This document shows positions 16,202 to 22,749 of a stretch of 34,045 bases of DNA, one piece after another. Below the pieces are notes generated by a model. That model had not been told where the DNA came from and did no database searches. It was given only the letters and a program-made list of their open reading frames with translations. The stretch comes from Methanomicrobia archaeon LH_S13. Its GTDB lineage: Archaea; Halobacteriota; Syntropharchaeia; Alkanophagales; Methanospirareceae. A program made the position numbers and the translations under genes. The DNA is taken from contig JAGXOR010000003.1 in the NCBI GenBank assembly GCA_023659785.1, positions 1 to 34,045 on the forward strand, given 5' to 3'. Every line of letters starts with the position of its first letter. The first letter of the stretch is position 1.

Positions 16202-16852
16202 ATGGCGGAAAGAAGAAGAAGACCCTCAATATTTGATTTGATGGAGAAGTATATGGAGCGGATGTTTGAAGATGCGAGAGGAGTGCGAGTACCATTCGAG
16301 GAGGAGTTCTCAAGAAGGCTGAGAAGAGAGCCGGAGGATAGAGAGGAGTGGTTAAGAGACCCGTTTGAGGATATAACGAGGAGATTAGAAGAGGAATTGC
16401 CAGAAGAGTACAAGGATTTTGTAACGGAAGAGGAGACGGCGGAGGGAAAAGGAAGGAGACACGGTCCTTTCATTTACGGGTTCTCCTATACAAAGGAGCC
16501 GGAAAAGGAGCCGGAGATAAAAGAGTTCGGAAATATAAAACCTTCGTACAGAAGAATAGAGCCTGCTCCAGGAGGCGAACGTGAGCCTTTGATAGATGTG
16601 ATGGAGCAGAAGGATTCGTACGAAGTCGTAGCGGAATTGCCAGGTGTCGAGAAGCGCGATATAAAATTGCATACAACCGAAGACTCACTGGAAATAAGAA
16701 CGGGAAACGAGAAAAAGTACTTCAAGGAAATACCCTTTGACATGCCTGTAAAGTCCGAAACTGCAAAGGCGACTTATAAAAACGGCGTGCTCAGCGTAAA
16801 GATAGCAAAGAAAGAAGACGAGAAGAAGAAGACTACTATAACATTGGATTGA
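16202..16852 (+). CDS. Small heat-shock protein Hsp20
   Basis: GPFIYGFS, EFGN, REPLIDV, AELPGVEK, ATYKNGVL; TTTTTATATATA box at ~16172 and GGTGA RBS upstream. Confidence 0.93.
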   Translation: MAERRRRPSIFDLMEKYMERMFEDARGVRVPFEEEFSRRLRREPEDREEWLRDPFEDITRRLEEELPEEYKDFVTEEETAEGKGRRHGPFIYGFSYTKEPEKEPEIKEFGNIKPSYRRIEPAPGGEREPLIDVMEQKDSYEVVAELPGVEKRDIKLHTTEDSLEIRTGNEKKYFKEIPFDMPVKSETAKATYKNGVLSVKIAKKEDEKKKTTITLD

Positions 16853-16862
16853 GCGAAAGGAA

Positions 16863-17181
16863 GGATTCGCAAATAAGTGGATTTAAGTCCACCTAAGTGG
16901 TCATTACCCAGAGCTTCTCAGTGCCACCTTTTCCCGCAGCTTCTCTCTTACTTCGCTCACCACGAGTTCGGCGACATCTGATGCATTTCGTTCATCGACC
17001 TCTATTTTCATCGGTCTCTTTATTTGTTTATTTACTTCTGTTACTATATAAAGGTCAATGATAATCAATCAGGATTTGGGAATGGACGTGCACACAGCAT
17101 CGGCATTAGTATTGGGGTTGCGGTATTTGCATACACCTAAAACCCCCATAAAACTATGAAAAAGGTAGCTGCTACGATAGG
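16863..17181 (+). mobile_element. ~315-bp non-autonomous element, copy 1 (IS607-like)
   Basis: Highly similar to 20895-21209; GG at both ends (right end placed by alignment to copy 2); three TAAG motifs at 10-bp spacing near the left end; TnpB-related tail LGMDVHTASALVLGLR. Confidence 0.7.
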
Positions 17182-17222
17182 CGACACGCTTCAAGGCTTC
17201 CAGCATTTTGAGAGGGAAGGTA

Positions 17223-17987
17223 ATGAAAGACATTACAAAAAATAAAATGACATGGAAAGACGAGAAAGAGGAACTCGGAAAAGAGATAACTTGTTTGTTA
17301 TACGAAAAAGGGCTGATAAAAACATGGTATCGTGATAATCCCGGTGGTTGGACGCTCGTTTCTGGCTTATGGAGTCCCTTCTACATCCAATTGAGACCTC
17401 TCTCTTCTTATCATGAACTGCTCAGAAAAGTGGGCTATGCTCTTGGAAAAATAATCAAAGAGGAATGCAAAGATGTAAATAAAGTGGTGGGTGTCGCAAT
17501 GACGGGAACACCTATCGCCAGTGCAATAGCAATACTGGTGGGCATACCATCGCTCTGGACGAGAAAAGTAGATGTCAGGTCTTCGGACGAATTCGAGAAG
17601 TACATTCAGAGTTATGGTGAGCATACGCTGGTAGAGGGCGAGTTTGAAACGGGCGACCGGATAGCGGTTATTGACGACCTGGCGACTAAATTCGATTCCA
17701 AACTCGTTGCAATTGAGCAAATGAACTACGAAGCGAAGAAGAGAGGTTTAAAAGTTGAATGTAAGGATGTGGTTGTTTTACTCGACCGTGAGCAGGGAGC
17801 GGCTGAAGTTGCCGCTCAGCATGGCATTTCGTTTTATTCTCTCATCCCCTTTAAGTCGAAAGGGATAGAATGGCTGAAAAGCAAAGTATCAAAAATCGAA
17901 TATGAAGTCATCAGCGGATATTTACAGGATGAGACGAAATATCAGGATGCTGAGGTTCAGAAGGAGTTATATGAGATTGTTTTTTGA
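17223..17987 (+). CDS. Orotate phosphoribosyltransferase-like protein (divergent type I PRTase)
   Basis: TLVSGLWSPFYIQLR, YGEHTLVEG, IAVIDDLAT, VVLLDREQG. Confidence 0.75.
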   Translation: MKDITKNKMTWKDEKEELGKEITCLLYEKGLIKTWYRDNPGGWTLVSGLWSPFYIQLRPLSSYHELLRKVGYALGKIIKEECKDVNKVVGVAMTGTPIASAIAILVGIPSLWTRKVDVRSSDEFEKYIQSYGEHTLVEGEFETGDRIAVIDDLATKFDSKLVAIEQMNYEAKKRGLKVECKDVVVLLDREQGAAEVAAQHGISFYSLIPFKSKGIEWLKSKVSKIEYEVISGYLQDETKYQDAEVQKELYEIVF

Positions 17988-18059
17988 GGTAATTATTTTT
18001 ATCCAATAATTATTTGATTTATTATTGCGAAATTTATGATGTTAGACTAAATAAAGAGA

Positions 18060-19052
18060 ATGAAAATCATCCCTGAAGAGATTAAGGACATTGAAAGGCT
18101 ACAGAAATATGAACGAATATTTCATGGACTTTTAAAAAACGAAATTTTTTCTAAACATGATATATGGGATTGCGGTGAGAGCAAAAGATTAATCGGGAGG
18201 ATAATAAATATACTTCTTGACGAAGGTTCGATTGTTAAACAGGCAAAAGAGACTTTTCAATGGGAACCCTCTTCTATAGAATTGTATAAGAAAGAATGGA
18301 TTGCTTCTGTGCGTCCCTCACATCAATTAAAGAGATTGAGGAAGGAAGAACGACCGAGAGAGAAACTTCTCATTTATGGGTCTTCCAAACTAACCACGCC
18401 TGAACTTTTAGCCATCTTCCTGCGTTCAGGGATTCAAGGTAAAAGTGCAATAATAATCGCAAATGACCTTCTCACGCAGTTTGGAGGTGTGAAAGGGATA
18501 TTTGAAGCAGATAAAAAGAAGCTTATGGAAATAGAAGGGTTAGGTGAGGCAAAAGTTGCACAAATAAAGGCGATTCATGCACTGGCTGAGGAATACTTGA
18601 AGGAGACGATGAAATCGGTTAGTAAAGTGAGAAACTCGAAAGAGGTGTTTGATTACCTGTATCTAACAATGCGAGATTTAAAAACAGAAAAATTCAAGGT
18701 TATTTATTTGAACAGTGCAGGTCAGATTATTGGTGATGAGAACCTTTTTGAGGGGACATTAAACGCGAGTTCGGTGTATCCAAGAGAGATAGTGAAAAGT
18801 GCGGTCAGTAAGAACGCCGCTTCGCTTATATTTGTTCATAATCATCCTTCGGGAGACCCTACACCTTCGGAAAGCGACAAGGCGATAACAGAAGATTTGG
18901 TCTATGCGTGTAACACCATGCAAATTAAAGTCTTAGACCATATTATTATAGGTGAGAATAGATATTTCAGTTTTACAGACGAGGGGTTAATTGAGGAGTA
19001 TAATTTAAATTTTTGTAGTATAAAAGAAAGTAGAAGAGGAGCAAATAGATGA
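18060..19052 (+). CDS. radC: RadC family JAB-domain protein with extra N-terminal domain
   Basis: [18 protein letters not shown], Hh[35 protein letters not shown]. Confidence 0.92.
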
Positions 19053-19053
19053 G

Positions 19054-20413
19054 ATGAATAAACTAAGTGATGAGGAGATAGAATATATGAGTAAATGTTT
19101 AACAGAGGGTAAGCCGCTTCCAGATAGTTACAGGTATATCATTCCTTTTGAGACAAAAAAGGAATATGAACTTACTTATGAAGGCAAGGAGCGGGAGGAA
19201 GAAATACTCGCAGATACAATGGCGGTTCCTTTGCAACCCGTGAAAACCTTTGGTGATGGAAATGGTGGCTGGACGAACAAGCTGATTTTTGGCGATAACC
19301 ATCAGGTTCTTAAAGCCTTAATGGATGATCCTGAGGTTTACGATAAAAATGCAGGAAAAGGAAAGGTGAGGCTGATTTATATTGATCCTCCTTTTGCTAC
19401 AAAACAGGAATTCAGAGGCACTCAGGATCAAAAGGCTTATCAGGATAAGATAATAGGAGCGCAGTTCCTGGAATTTCTGAGAAAAAGGCTTGTCTTTTTG
19501 AGAGAGCTCTTGGCTGATGATGGGAGTATCTACGTGCATTTGGACTGGAGAAAAGCTCATTATTTTAAGACTTTAATGGATGAGATTTTTGGAGAGCATA
19601 ATTTAGTTAATGAAATAATATGGAATTATAAAGGAACGACTAACAGCCAGAATATGTATGCAAGGAAACACGAAACCATTTATTTTTATACAAAAAATTG
19701 GGGCAAGCATATTTTTAATCCCGATGGTGTAAGAATTGGATATGATGATTTATCTGCATACAAAAAGGACAAGGGCGGTAAGTGGTATAAACAGTGGACA
19801 AAGGAACGGAGACATTACCCAGCTCAAGAATTTATGAATGGCGAATGGGTACTATTAGGTAAATATAGATACGATGTGTGGGATGATGTTCCATCAATGG
19901 CTACAGCTCATGGCTCTGAGTATTTAGGTTTTCCAAATCAGAAGAAAGAAAGACTATTAGAAATTATCATCAAAGCTTCCTCCAATCCTGGTGATATTGT
20001 TCTTGACGCCTTTGCTGGTTCTGGGACAATAGGAGCAGTGGCAGAAAAACTTGGTAGAAGATGGATTATGATTGATTGTGGTAAACTTGCCATTTATACT
20101 ATGCAAAAAAGATTGCTAAATCTTAAGGAAAAGATTGGCAATAAAGGAAAGGCATTAAAGCCAAAACCTTTTACTCTTTATAACGCTGGTCTGTATAATT
20201 ATAAAATGGTTAAAGATTTGCCCAGGGATAAATATAGGGAATTTGTGCTTAAACTCTTTCAGTGCAGGGATGAAAAACATAGAATTGCTGGTGTAGAACT
20301 GGACGGTTATCTTTGTGCGGGGGCAGATGATGATTATTTATATTGATATTTTCGGGAATGAGAAGAGAGAGATGAAGAGATTAGAGAACTTTAAGGAAAG
20401 GGGGCAAAATTAA
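19054..20413 (+). pseudogene. Type III R-M-like adenine methyltransferase (Mod), internal deletion and frameshift near 3' end
   Basis: [21 protein letters not shown] motifs. The ORF stops at 20346, but a Mod-like C-terminus [21 protein letters not shown] continues in another frame to ~20413. Confidence 0.8.
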
Positions 20414-21375
20414 TGGAGACAAGATTAAAAACCTCTTGTCTATACACCAGATGAGTGGAAATGTGCAGAGGAGATTAATAGTGCCTTTATCCGGTTAGTT
20501 TTATCAAAAGGAATTGTTTTATCAGACGCAAAGAGTAGAAGAAAAGACCATTTATGAGCGAGCAGTTACGGAGGATCGGCGGGAGAAGAGCACTCTTATA
20601 GAGTTTGATGTGTACACTGCTGAAGAGATTGCTCAAATTGTTCATAATAGGTACAAAAGTTGGGATATGGAAGAAAGCACAAATTATGCTCAAGAACACC
20701 CTCTTGATAAAATCTTACCCATTATTAGAAATTCTTTGGAACAGAGGGGAAATTTAATTAATGAAAAGGGCAGACAGAGGATATTGCAAGCATTTGGGGT
20801 AATAAAAAGGAAGAGAAGCAAAAGTTTGCGGTATAAAGTAGAAGTCGAGAACATTTTTAAAATTAACACATCAGATATTAAAAGAAGTAGTTTAGGGTTC
20901 ACAAATAAGCGGTCTTAAGTCCACCTAAGTGATCATTACCCGGCTTCTCGGTGCCACCTTTCCCCGCAGCTTCTCTCTTACTTTGCTCACCACGAGTTCG
21001 CCGACATCCGATGCATTGCGTTCATCGACCTCTATTTTCATCGGTCTCATTATTTGTTTATTTACTTCTGTTACTATATAAAGGTTAATGATAATCAATC
21101 ACGATTTGGGAATGGACGTGCACACAGCATCGGCATTAGTATTGGGGTTGCGGTATTTGCATACACTTAAAACCACATAAGAGCATGAAAACTGGAACTG
21201 TTGAAAAGGCATTGGTGCCTTGAGAAGGGATGGTAGTATTTTCTATGACAATTACTCCGTGAGTAACAGTGATGAAGAAGATAGAAAGCTGTTAAAAGAA
21301 CTGTTGGATGACGAAACTCTTCCAAGATATGCATTACAGAGGATCGAAATGAATCGGAACTTGAAGCAAATTTAG
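20413..21375 (+). pseudogene. Type III R-M-like restriction subunit (Res) remnant, heavily deleted and interrupted by an insertion
   Basis: ATG overlaps the Mod-tail stop. The middle fragment ends ..NTSDIKRSSLG at 20896 and resumes in frame after the element as IGALRRDGSIFYDNYS..LLKELLDDETLPR. Res identity comes from position and recalled similarity; no helicase motifs remain. Confidence 0.6.
20895..21209 (+). mobile_element. ~311-bp non-autonomous element, copy 2 (IS607-like)
   Basis: Direct-orientation copy of 16863-17181. Removing 20897-21209 leaves one GG and restores an open frame TTA GGC ATT GGT GCC TTG AGA AGG. Confidence 0.78.
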
Positions 21376-21393
21376 AAGAATAGACAACAAAAA

Positions 21394-22749
21394 ATGAACA
21401 TAAGAGCAAGAAAAATATACGAGGCGCTGTTTGCACTTGAAGACCTGCGAGGAATATTCAGGCATGCCTTACCCACGGGACTCGACAAAAACGAAGAAGA
21501 ACAACTCTTAACTGGCATAGCCCGTGTAGAAGCCATCATAAAAGAATTAAAAGAGGGCAAGGGCAGCCCAATCAAATACGTAGAGGATAAGATTGAACTA
21601 AGAACAATAGAAGAAGAATTCATAAACATTAATGCCATTCAACCCGGTGGGAGATTAACGCCAGAAGCGCGAAAAGCACTTATTGCATACGGCGATGGAT
21701 ATTCCGTCTGCGATAAATGTCTGGAGGGCAGGCTTGATAAGATCAGAAAACCGCCTGTGGACGAATTCCATGCAGAACTCGCCGAATTTGTAGGTATGGA
21801 CGAAGTAAGGGTTGTGCCGGGTGCGAGGAGAGGTTTCCAGGCTGTTACTTCCTCTCTGCTTGAGAAAGGCGACATCGTGTTAGTTTCGGATTTGGCGCAT
21901 TATACCGAGTACTTAGCAGTAGAGAATGTAGGTGGCAAAATTAAAGAAGTTCCTTCTGGCGAGAAGAACATAATTACCGGTGATGCCGTAGCAGAAAAGA
22001 TAGAAAGTGTGAAGGAAGAGACGGGAAAACTACCTAAACTTATCATCATTGAGCATTTTGATTACGGCTTCGGGAACGAGCATGACGTGTATGGCGTGGG
22101 AAAGGTTGCAAAGGGATATGACATCCCTTTTCTTTACAATGGCGCTTATTCCGTGGGGATACTGCCCGTGAACGGTAAGGACATAGGAGCTGACTTCGTT
22201 GTGGGCTCAGGGCATAAGAGTATGGCGGCAGTCGCACCCTCAGGCATCCTTGCCACTACTGAAGATTGGGCACCAAAAGTATTCAGAGGCAGTCATATAG
22301 TTGGAGATACCACAGGTAGGAGATTCGAGAATAAAGAGCCGGAGATGCTGGGCTGCACCCTGATGGGTGGGACATTGCTATCCATGATGGCTTCTTTTCC
22401 ATACATAAAAGAGCGAGTGAAGAGATGGGATGAGGAAGTAAAGAAATCAAATTATTTCATCCAAGAGTTCTTGCGAATAGAAGGGAATAAAATATCGAGT
22501 GAATATCCTCGTAAACATACGCTTTCAAAAGTTGATACTCGCGATAGTTTCGACAGAATTGCGAAGAGGCATAAGCGACGAGGCTTTTTTCTCAGCGATG
22601 AATTGAAGCGAAGAGGAATTATAGGTGAATTCGCAGGCTCGACAAGGGTATGGGAACTTAATACTTATGGGTTGTGCTGGGGCAGGATAAAGTACCTGAG
22701 CGAGGCGTTCAAAGAAATAGCGGGGAAATATGAGTTGCCTATACGATAG
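21394..22749 (+). CDS. pscS: Sep-tRNA:Cys-tRNA synthase (SepCysS) with N-terminal extension
   Basis: FININAIQPGGRLT, GDGYSVCDKC, GARRG, PLP lysine SGHKS, LGCT. Confidence 0.93.
   Translation: MNIRARKIYEALFALEDLRGIFRHALPTGLDKNEEEQLLTGIARVEAIIKELKEGKGSPIKYVEDKIELRTIEEEFININAIQPGGRLTPEARKALIAYGDGYSVCDKCLEGRLDKIRKPPVDEFHAELAEFVGMDEVRVVPGARRGFQAVTSSLLEKGDIVLVSDLAHYTEYLAVENVGGKIKEVPSGEKNIITGDAVAEKIESVKEETGKLPKLIIIEHFDYGFGNEHDVYGVGKVAKGYDIPFLYNGAYSVGILPVNGKDIGADFVVGSGHKSMAAVAPSGILATTEDWAPKVFRGSHIVGDTTGRRFENKEPEMLGCTLMGGTLLSMMASFPYIKERVKRWDEEVKKSNYFIQEFLRIEGNKISSEYPRKHTLSKVDTRDSFDRIAKRHKRRGFFLSDELKRRGIIGEFAGSTRVWELNTYGLCWGRIKYLSEAFKEIAGKYELPIR

Follow-up and report, generated by a model that had tools for sequence, protein, structure and literature searches.

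A high-copy, protein-less miniature element with IS607-type ends in a methanomicrobial archaeon, probably mobilised in trans

How does a short segment of DNA without a transposase gene come to lie precisely within a reading frame, bounded only by a GG dinucleotide on either side? This question is raised by positions 20895-21209 of a 34,045-nucleotide stretch (below, the window, meaning this whole stretch) of contig JAGXOR010000003.1 of Methanomicrobia archaeon LH_S13. A first-pass annotation, made from the letters alone, reported that the segment is repeated at 16863-17181 and proposed that it is a miniature IS607 derivative mobilised in trans. IS607 elements are known as tnpA-tnpB units. From our sequence comparisons, we consider it likely (with a probability of roughly 0.8) that the repeat is a non-autonomous IS607-family element that would be mobilised in trans at a GG core. 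One part of the proposal needs to be amended: the immediate parent of the miniature is not a tnpA-tnpB unit but a 1386-bp element that itself lacks tnpA and carries an RHH-like gene together with a gene for a TnpB relative.

The two copies in the window, the boundaries of copy 2 and the gene that it interrupts are as follows.

20895..21209, plus strand: copy 2 of the miniature element, 315 bp with both GG (net insertion 313 bp), inside a Res-like gene remnant
16863..17181, plus strand: copy 1 of the miniature element, 319 bp, intergenic, 11 nt past the stop of an Hsp20-like gene
20895..20896, plus strand: left GG, the crossover dinucleotide in the IS607 model; GG in 18/18 left junctions, and one GG only at the empty site
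21208..21209, plus strand: right GG; the following base, which belongs to the target, is C in 18/20 junctions
20514..20894, plus strand: upstream half of the interrupted Res-like gene remnant, aligning to an 839-aa frame of a relative
21210..21375, plus strand: downstream half of the interrupted gene remnant, in frame after removal of 313 nt

A repeat search confirmed both copies, pairing 16913-17144 with 20943-21174 (232 nt, 96%) and 16862-16909 with 20894-20941 (48 nt, 88%), and in a BLAST comparison within the organism's own genome the copies are 92% identical across element positions 1-297 (297 nt). The final ~20 nt of copy 1 are unlike those of copy 2, yet copy 1 also ends in GG (17181), and its right tip is a variant seen in a relative (G003). 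There is no transposase frame inside the 315 bp, and the repeat search found no inverted-repeat pair of 40 nt or more in the window. Terminal inverted repeats are therefore absent, as the first-pass annotation had claimed.

Copy 2 is a precise insertion with a natural empty site. The annotation had set the GG-bounded ends by rejoining the interrupted reading frame, and two lines of evidence bear this out. First, a relative (G076, contig C66) has helicase motifs in an open frame of 839 aa; the alignment of this frame to the window runs as far as ...KRSSLG (20894) and restarts at 21208 with G-IGALRRDGSIFYD (G-IGALRR), the two parts overlapping at query residues 633-638. Second, contigs of the public runs X17 and X1, which belong to two studies, join 20893 to 21207 and skip 313 nt; they are 2811 nt (143 nt on the shorter side) and 336 nt (93 nt on the shorter side) long, respectively. 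At the empty site, three letters (AGG) can be assigned to either side, and the sequence reads ...TTT-AGG-CAT..., with a single GG. With one GG at the empty site, and a Res homologue that runs on colinearly past the junction, the insertion adds 313 bp net and leaves no duplication other than the GG. Independent runs hold both the filled and the empty site. The Res-like gene is itself a remnant: compared with the X17 contig, it lacks approximately 1965 nt at 20521/20522, and the two sequences part once more at 21349/21350.

The element is present in many near-identical copies with fixed GG ends. We searched the organism's own genome, a fragmented metagenome assembly of 1.54 Mb in 264 contigs that is 85.6% complete, by BLAST with the element and its 100-nt flanks. 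There were 39 matches, 35 of which touch a contig end (16 left-end, 17 right-end and 2 internal stubs); the other four are the two complete copies in the window and two internal matches to a related right end. Most copies are visible only as stubs of 50-55 nt at contig ends, and the element is found at 35 of the 528 contig ends of the assembly (~7%). The copy number is at least 17. In all copies the similarity ends 0-4 nt from the ends originally proposed, which is far from the case of two copies with variable ends that would have spoken against a mobile element. In runs X15-X17, words from the element have a summed depth 20-150 times that of words from the flanks, a ratio that we do not take as a copy number.

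The flanks of different copies are mutually unrelated, and it is the junctions that are constant. All 18 left junctions (17 of the main type plus copy 1) begin with GG(G/A)TT; 19 of the 20 right junctions (16 of the main type and 4 of a related type) end in GG and one ends in GA. The tips of the element are GGGTTCAC... (left) and ...TTGAAAAGG (right). Base counts in the target, taken from 17 left and 20 right junctions, are to be compared with a genome composition of A 0.29, C 0.21, G 0.21 and T 0.29:

Target base -4: G in 10/17
Target base -3: T in 10/17
Target base -2: T in 13/17
Target base -1: A in 9/17, G in 7/17, C in 1/17
Target base +1: C in 18/20
Target base +2: A in 12/20
Target base +3: T in 11/20

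The consensus target is GTTR-GG-CAT, in which GG alone is invariant. Within the left end, TAAG occurs at element positions 12-15, 22-25 and 32-35 (20906-20909, 20916-20919 and 20926-20929), in a 10-bp phase. There is weak subterminal inverted similarity between the two ends, of a kind reported for IS607 elements, though no terminal inverted repeat.

Where did the miniature come from? Among 60 related genomes that we searched for relatives of the element, 4 gave matches. In one of these (G030, contig C70), two halves of the element lie 1054 nt apart, with positions 1-200 at 79% and positions 197-315 at 76% identity. The halves enclose a 1386-bp element that begins with GG and ends with GG followed by C. 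Its cargo consists of a 52-codon RHH-like frame and a 339-aa protein, P0001, which is a TnpB relative without a zinc finger; no transposase frame is found in the 1386 bp. Both window copies retain the last ~30 codons of the P0001 gene (residues 309-337; 72-73% identity, E values of 5e-7 and 5e-8), which in copy 2 appear as the following feature.

21088..21180, plus strand: what is left of the parent's TnpB-like gene at its 3' end (30 codons, MIINHDLGMDVHTASALVLGLRYLHTLKTT); 76% DNA identity to the G030 element

The miniature element is an internal-deletion derivative of this ~1.39-kb parent. Other miniature forms, with different deletion junctions, occur in G030 itself (contig C191) and in another relative (G018, contig C210). 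With P0001 as query, no full-length gene was found in the organism's own assembly. However, in runs X15 and X16, whose flanks are near-identical to those in the window, loose ends at 21088 and 21090 lead on into the RHH frame and emerge from the TnpB-like tail, and a full-length parent therefore exists in very close strains.

The own genome also holds two truncated parent copies (C108:1-~110 and C200:1-~124) in which the left part is retained as far as the beginning of the RHH frame. Both break at an internal GG, after which unrelated DNA follows, as if the internal GG were an alternative end. The C200 copy replaces the last codons of an intein-containing CDC48-like gene.

P0001 is predicted to have a TnpB/Cas12f fold with the RuvC motif set. 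Its AlphaFold2 model (mean pLDDT 80.8) has Cas12f, ISFba1 TnpB and ISDra2 TnpB as its best Foldseek matches (E values from 2e-9 to 8e-6). P0001 has no Pfam match in our local library, and its scores against the NCBIfam TnpB models TIGR01765 (8e-9) and NF040570 (7e-5) are both below the cut-offs. From a large protein search we obtained 75 relatives; every one with a named source is from an archaeon or an archaeal metagenome bin, and some bear the name TnpB or transposase. In an alignment of 19 family members, D191, E255 and H321 are invariant in RuvC-like motifs, no Cys cluster lies in the stretch from RuvC-II to RuvC-III, and the RuvC-III Asp is replaced by His (H321). The upstream 52-codon frame has a weak match to RHH_6 (E 0.0056), which is below the cut-off.

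These features recall a group described by Altae-Tran et al. 2023 (PMC10691335). In that paper, RHH/MazE-TnpB (clade RIIIr-4) is archaeal, lacks the zinc finger, has the RuvC-III Asp-to-His change and lies downstream of an RHH/AbrB gene; it is counted among nonmobile tnpB genes and proposed to form a toxin-antitoxin pair. P0001 and its RHH-like partner fit this clade, as judged from the published description.

The own genome has two IS607-type transposase genes, on contigs C188 and C232. The C232 protein (194 aa to the contig end) is 82% identical to a 199-aa protein of G018 (contig C68), and both have MerR/HTH_17 at residues 4-51 and Resolvase at 60-187. In G018 this tnpA is overlapped by a zinc-ribbon tnpB, and below we call such tnpA-tnpB units canonical. 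A BLASTP comparison of P0001 with the canonical TnpB gave an E value of 0.15. A second canonical copy in the own genome, on contig C245, has an internally deleted tnpA; the deletion, at ~730-960 on the minus strand, removes most of tnpA (approximately residues 59-180) and keeps the end and the tnpB start.

Comparison of C232 with C245 places the tnpA-proximal boundary between G and CC-CTTGCAACAGTT.... For the other end, a relative (G021, contig C387) has a homologous tnpB, then ...GTGGACTTAAATATACTTAAGTCTACTTAGAGTAGAACCC, and then unrelated DNA. Ends of this kind, with flanks that diverge right after GAACCC, are found in the own genome on C219, C111, C89, C27 and C242 (twice), and also in G018. 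Read on the opposite strand, the canonical element starts with GGGTTC... and ends with ...AACTGTTGCAAGGG followed by C, like the miniature element. C also follows GG in 3/3 canonical copies, and does so in those relatives, Sulfolobales among them, that were examined.

The terminal segments of the miniature correspond to the canonical ends as listed here. They were compared in register and ungapped from the tips, with 10000 shuffles.

20895..20939, plus strand: left terminal 45 nt, reverse-complement homologue of the canonical tnpB-distal end, with TAAG at 20906, 20916 and 20926
21165..21209, plus strand: right terminal 45 nt, reverse-complement homologue of the canonical tnpA-proximal end, including the former TATA region
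Left 45 nt against five tnpB-distal ends: 22-26/45 identical; 0-8/10000 shuffles as high
Right 45 nt against the tnpA-proximal ends of C232 and C245: 27/45 identical; 0/10000 shuffles
Right 45 nt against the tnpA-proximal end of G018 C68: 31/45 identical; 0/10000 shuffles

In the canonical tnpB-distal ends, TAAG occurs at all three positions in G021 C387, and at 12-15 and 32-35 in C219 and C111. In G018, the miniature form and the canonical element have a lineage-specific tip, GTTACAAAGG, in common (17 of the last 20 nt).

On the strand that reads GG...GG, the canonical tnpA and tnpB are antisense, whereas the parent's RHH and TnpB-like genes are sense; the parent cargo is therefore inverted. 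The first-pass annotation is corrected by this in a further respect: the phased TAAG motifs do lie in what it called the left end, but this end matches, by homology, the right (tnpB-distal) end of the canonical element, whose genes are on the opposite strand. Also, its 10-bp phasing of TAAG is present in copy 2, although the string that it quoted belongs to copy 1. Its expectation of a full element having both ends, with tnpB and a serine tnpA (MerR helix-turn-helix plus resolvase), has been borne out in the same genome and in relatives, and its other checks, on copies, empty sites and Res homologues, likewise turned out in its favour. The miniature is a natural, high-copy, protein-less IS607-type element whose immediate parent is an RHH-TnpB unit riding inverted between IS607 ends.

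The same homology of both ends to those of a tnpA-bearing element is found in a second archaeal lineage. Three Sulfolobales genomes with RHH-TnpB elements have 7, 14 and 37 resolvase matches. In two of the three (G090 and G091), we set seven IS607-type copies against locus L156: five of them can be aligned for ~1.94 kb and the other two are truncated at locus ends, with identities of 87-92%. When the canonical tips are compared with the tips of the RHH-TnpB elements in the same genomes, 33-34/45 positions are identical at the GGGG end and 38-40/45 at the ...ACGG end, values that are reached in 0/10000 shuffles. The canonical genes are again on the strand opposite to the RHH-TnpB genes. The RHH-TnpB elements are present in 2-3 diverged copies per genome (75-87% identity), with the boundaries GG and GG followed by C.

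At four Sulfolobales loci (L097, L102, L103 and L106, ~2092-2457), a frame of 101-122 codons without a Pfam match stands upstream of the TnpB-like gene, in place of the 52-codon RHH-like frame of G030.

Based on these comparisons, we propose the following mechanism. A serine transposase with an N-terminal MerR-type helix-turn-helix and a resolvase domain would be supplied by a canonical tnpA-tnpB element of the same genome. It would bind the phased TAAG/CTTA motifs near the ends and bring the ends together. Strand exchange at GG would then release a circle with one GG and reseal the donor, and the GG of the circle would recombine with a GG in the target, preferably within GTTR-GG-CAT. The outcome would be a simple insertion without inverted ends and without target duplication. 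In this scheme we infer the acting transposase, the circle intermediate and present-day activity.

A number of points weigh against this interpretation. No transposition, circle junction or transposase binding has been observed. The serine transposase of C188 has an upstream end that is unrelated to the miniature element, and we have ruled it out as an end-sharing partner. The ends of the main 315-bp family are only 50-70% identical to the canonical ends found here, and those of a second miniature family (the C242 type, see below) are much closer; the cognate transposase may therefore be another, unassembled one. In this metagenome-assembled genome, the canonical copies are spread over separate contigs: tnpA runs off the contig end in C232 and has lost internal sequence in C245, so that an intact transposase gene in the same genome is not proven. 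There is no resolvase match in G030, the holder of the full-length parent, in an assembly that is 87% complete. Finally, the preference for C after GG (18/20) is without counterpart in those parts of the IS607 literature that we consulted.

The second miniature family is found in the own genome at C242:20438-20850, at C197:55-125 and at contig ends of C185 and C55, and in G018 on contig C210. Its ends are much nearer to canonical IS607-type ends than are those of the main 315-bp family. On C242, a 70-nt copy of the right end directly follows the element, and the tip ...GAACTGTTACAAAGG is thus present twice, 70 nt apart.

The most serious alternative is that the element spreads mainly not through an IS607 serine transposase but by nuclease-driven homing or gene conversion, in which empty sites are cut in the manner of TnpB and then filled by copying, or else through an unknown recombinase. 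This possibility is best considered together with the RNA- and promoter-like features of the element, two of which are listed here.

21075..21082, both strands: archaeal TATA-box-like motif TATATAAA, kept from the parent and conserved in G030 and copy 1; putative promoter
20895..21050, minus strand: left part, predicted structured RNA ending at the tip; includes the non-conserved 38-codon frame 21041-20925

On the minus strand, the left part lies downstream of the TATA-like box and corresponds by homology to the 3' end of the canonical tnpB. Its predicted fold across five related copies has 38 pairs with 95.8% of cells paired and 3 compensatory changes, and 22/500 shuffles score as high; slid controls are 34-45% paired. 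The fold of a single copy has z = -1.32. The canonical ends have a hairpin at a distance of 11-14 nt from the tip, for which 8 sequences show 3 compensatory pairs. These data are suggestive of a guide-RNA scaffold remnant in the minus-strand left part. Folds of the whole element gave no signal (plus strand, z = +1.16; minus strand, z = -0.56). The right 125 nt are conserved in sequence as CTATGAAAA..G.AACTGTTAC....GG, and a conserved RNA fold is absent from the plus strand of these last 125 nt across 11 sequences. A search of both strands of window positions 16700-21400 against Rfam gave no family for the element and two sub-threshold chance matches elsewhere. We also considered whether the element's small frames might be genes. 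The 38-codon minus-strand frame, which has no Pfam match, and a 30-codon plus-strand frame are not kept between copies, and we rejected both because copy 1 and G030 have indels whose lengths are not multiples of three.

In favour of homing, one can point to the retention of 3' regions beside both tips, which is the usual place of TnpB guide RNAs, to the weak covariation for a structured minus-strand RNA, and to the fact that the cognate transposase is not identified with certainty. However, homing fills only the same site on a sister chromosome, and cannot give at least 17 copies at unrelated sites, while junctions fixed only at GG, together with motifs in phase, are in keeping with a serine transposase. 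We therefore regard homing as improbable as the main means of spread.

Another alternative is a non-autonomous IS200/IS605-type element, similar to PATEs and derived from a tnpB-only element, which would be moved by a Y1 (HUH) TnpA through single-strand peel-and-paste. The parent does carry a TnpB relative, and such proteins are labelled 'IS200/IS605 accessory protein'; the genome does encode Y1 transposases; and both the lack of inverted ends and duplication, and the small hairpin 11-14 nt from one tip, are in keeping with this idea. Yet the hairpin is weakened in the most abundant copy type, and there is no fixed 4-5-nt target 5' of the left end, where the last three flank bases vary (TTA, TTG, GTG, GAA and others). 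Nor do the neighbours of P0001-family genes point to a Y1 enzyme. With three transposases of the own genome (two serine, one Y1) as tblastn queries (E<=0.01), no serine or Y1 tnpA was found within 2.5 kb in 58 P0001-family loci (one genome per species). Likewise, among 250 frames of at least 90 aa near these genes, none of the 70 directly upstream has a Resolvase or Y1_Tnp match in Pfam. Since both ends are, moreover, homologous to those of a serine-transposase element, we consider an IS200/IS605-type origin very improbable.

That the repeat is not mobile at all, but an assembly artefact or an ordinary duplicated segment, would be in keeping with a fragmented metagenome assembly in which most copies are contig-end stubs, but its probability is practically negligible in view of two complete copies at unrelated sites within one 34-kb contig, stubs that end exactly at GG, filled and empty sites in independent runs, and related copies with the same ends in four other genomes.

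Returning to transposition in trans at GG, the features described above can be combined into a broader reading, which is speculative and which we think rather unlikely to be correct as a whole. In it, the 313-bp element would be a protein-less hitch-hiker that recruits three trans-acting proteins and has two outward guide-RNA genes. A serine transposase would serve for jumping, and the guide-RNA genes would be driven from the internal TATA box. The minus-strand transcript through the GGGTTC tip would arm the canonical TnpB, and the plus-strand transcript through the ...AAAAGG tip would arm the RHH-associated TnpB without a zinc finger. The target halves GTTR-GG and GG-CAT would be the adjacent motifs of the two nucleases, and the RHH-TnpB pair would be an IS607-type retention module.

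Should this reading hold, RHH-TnpB, described in print as a candidate toxin-antitoxin pair that is nonmobile, would serve an IS607-type transposon as its retention module. Independently of it, the occurrence of an RHH gene and a zinc-finger-less TnpB gene between IS607-type ends in two archaeal lineages makes the role of this pair, as transposon retention module or as toxin, testable. The element also matters for the assembly and annotation of such archaeal genomes, in that it breaks ~7% of the contig ends of this assembly and disrupts genes precisely. We found no description of a natural high-copy miniature IS607 derivative in the literature searched, a search whose coverage lay outside subscription journals.

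Some additional features of the window are less closely connected to the element. The Res-like remnant belongs to a decayed restriction-modification locus (19054-21375), in which it follows a 430-aa methylase frame. Within the methylase frame, 19913-19976 on the minus strand has a C/D-box snoRNA-like Rfam match of 27.5 bits against a gathering score of 45, which is probably a chance match. Positions 1-172 hold two 70-nt direct repeats, 93% identical and 102 nt apart, at the contig start and within a coding repeat.

How does the element relate to systems that are already known? Like classical MITEs (miniature transposable elements with inverted repeats), it is small, high-copy and an internal-deletion derivative of a longer element. 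Unlike these, it has neither terminal inverted repeats nor a target-site duplication, and it is not a MITE in the strict sense.

It resembles PATEs and SMN1, a 320-bp element of Sulfolobus islandicus that is cited in PMC3718332 as mobilised by ISC1733, in being short and protein-less, in having no inverted ends or duplication, and in needing a transposase in trans. However, PATEs are associated with Y1 transposases and with a fixed target word of 4-5 nt 5' of the left end. Here, no such word and no association with a Y1 TnpA was found: GG alone is fixed, and the ends match a serine-transposase element.

The parent's protein is like RHH/MazE-TnpB of clade RIIIr-4, as the paper describes it, in its occurrence in euryarchaeal and crenarchaeal lineages, its upstream RHH-like gene, its lack of a C4 zinc finger, its H321 and its predicted TnpB/Cas12f fold. 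It differs from the clade as published there, i.e., as nonmobile, in that the pair found here lies between IS607-type ends, is multicopy in Sulfolobales and is the source of a high-copy miniature.

The closest likeness is to the IS607 family (IS607, IS1535, ISC1926 and CboIStron). According to PMC6188088, IS607 elements use a GG target, have neither inverted ends nor a duplication, and have short direct motifs near the ends, which are helically phased in IS1535. The archaeal element likewise inserts with GG at both junctions and without inverted repeats or duplication, has motifs phased at ~10 bp and weak subterminal inverted similarity, and shares homology at both ends with a tnpA(serine)-tnpB element of its own genome. 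What sets it apart is that the miniature has no tnpA and no complete tnpB and measures only 313 bp; a serine TnpA with a MerR-like domain is absent from the element and is found only in trans (C232 and G018 C68). Its interior also stems from an RHH and zinc-finger-less TnpB cargo that is inverted relative to the canonical genes, and there is the additional preference for C after GG.

For CboIStron, bioRxiv 10.1101/2023.11.20.567912 describes a strict requirement for GG, a G-rich adjacent motif and an engineered mini-CboIStron without tnpA and tnpB that was excised in trans by TnpA-S. In this Clostridium element, as described there, GG forms the end of the guide RNA scaffold on the sense strand of tnpB, whereas the archaeal canonical tnpA and tnpB are antisense on the GG...GG strand. 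The mini-CboIStron shows that nothing more than IS607 ends is needed for a serine transposase acting in trans to excise an element, the GG core being strictly required. That construct, as reported, was made in the laboratory and studied in E. coli, whereas the archaeal element, known here from sequence alone, is natural and is present in at least 17 copies.

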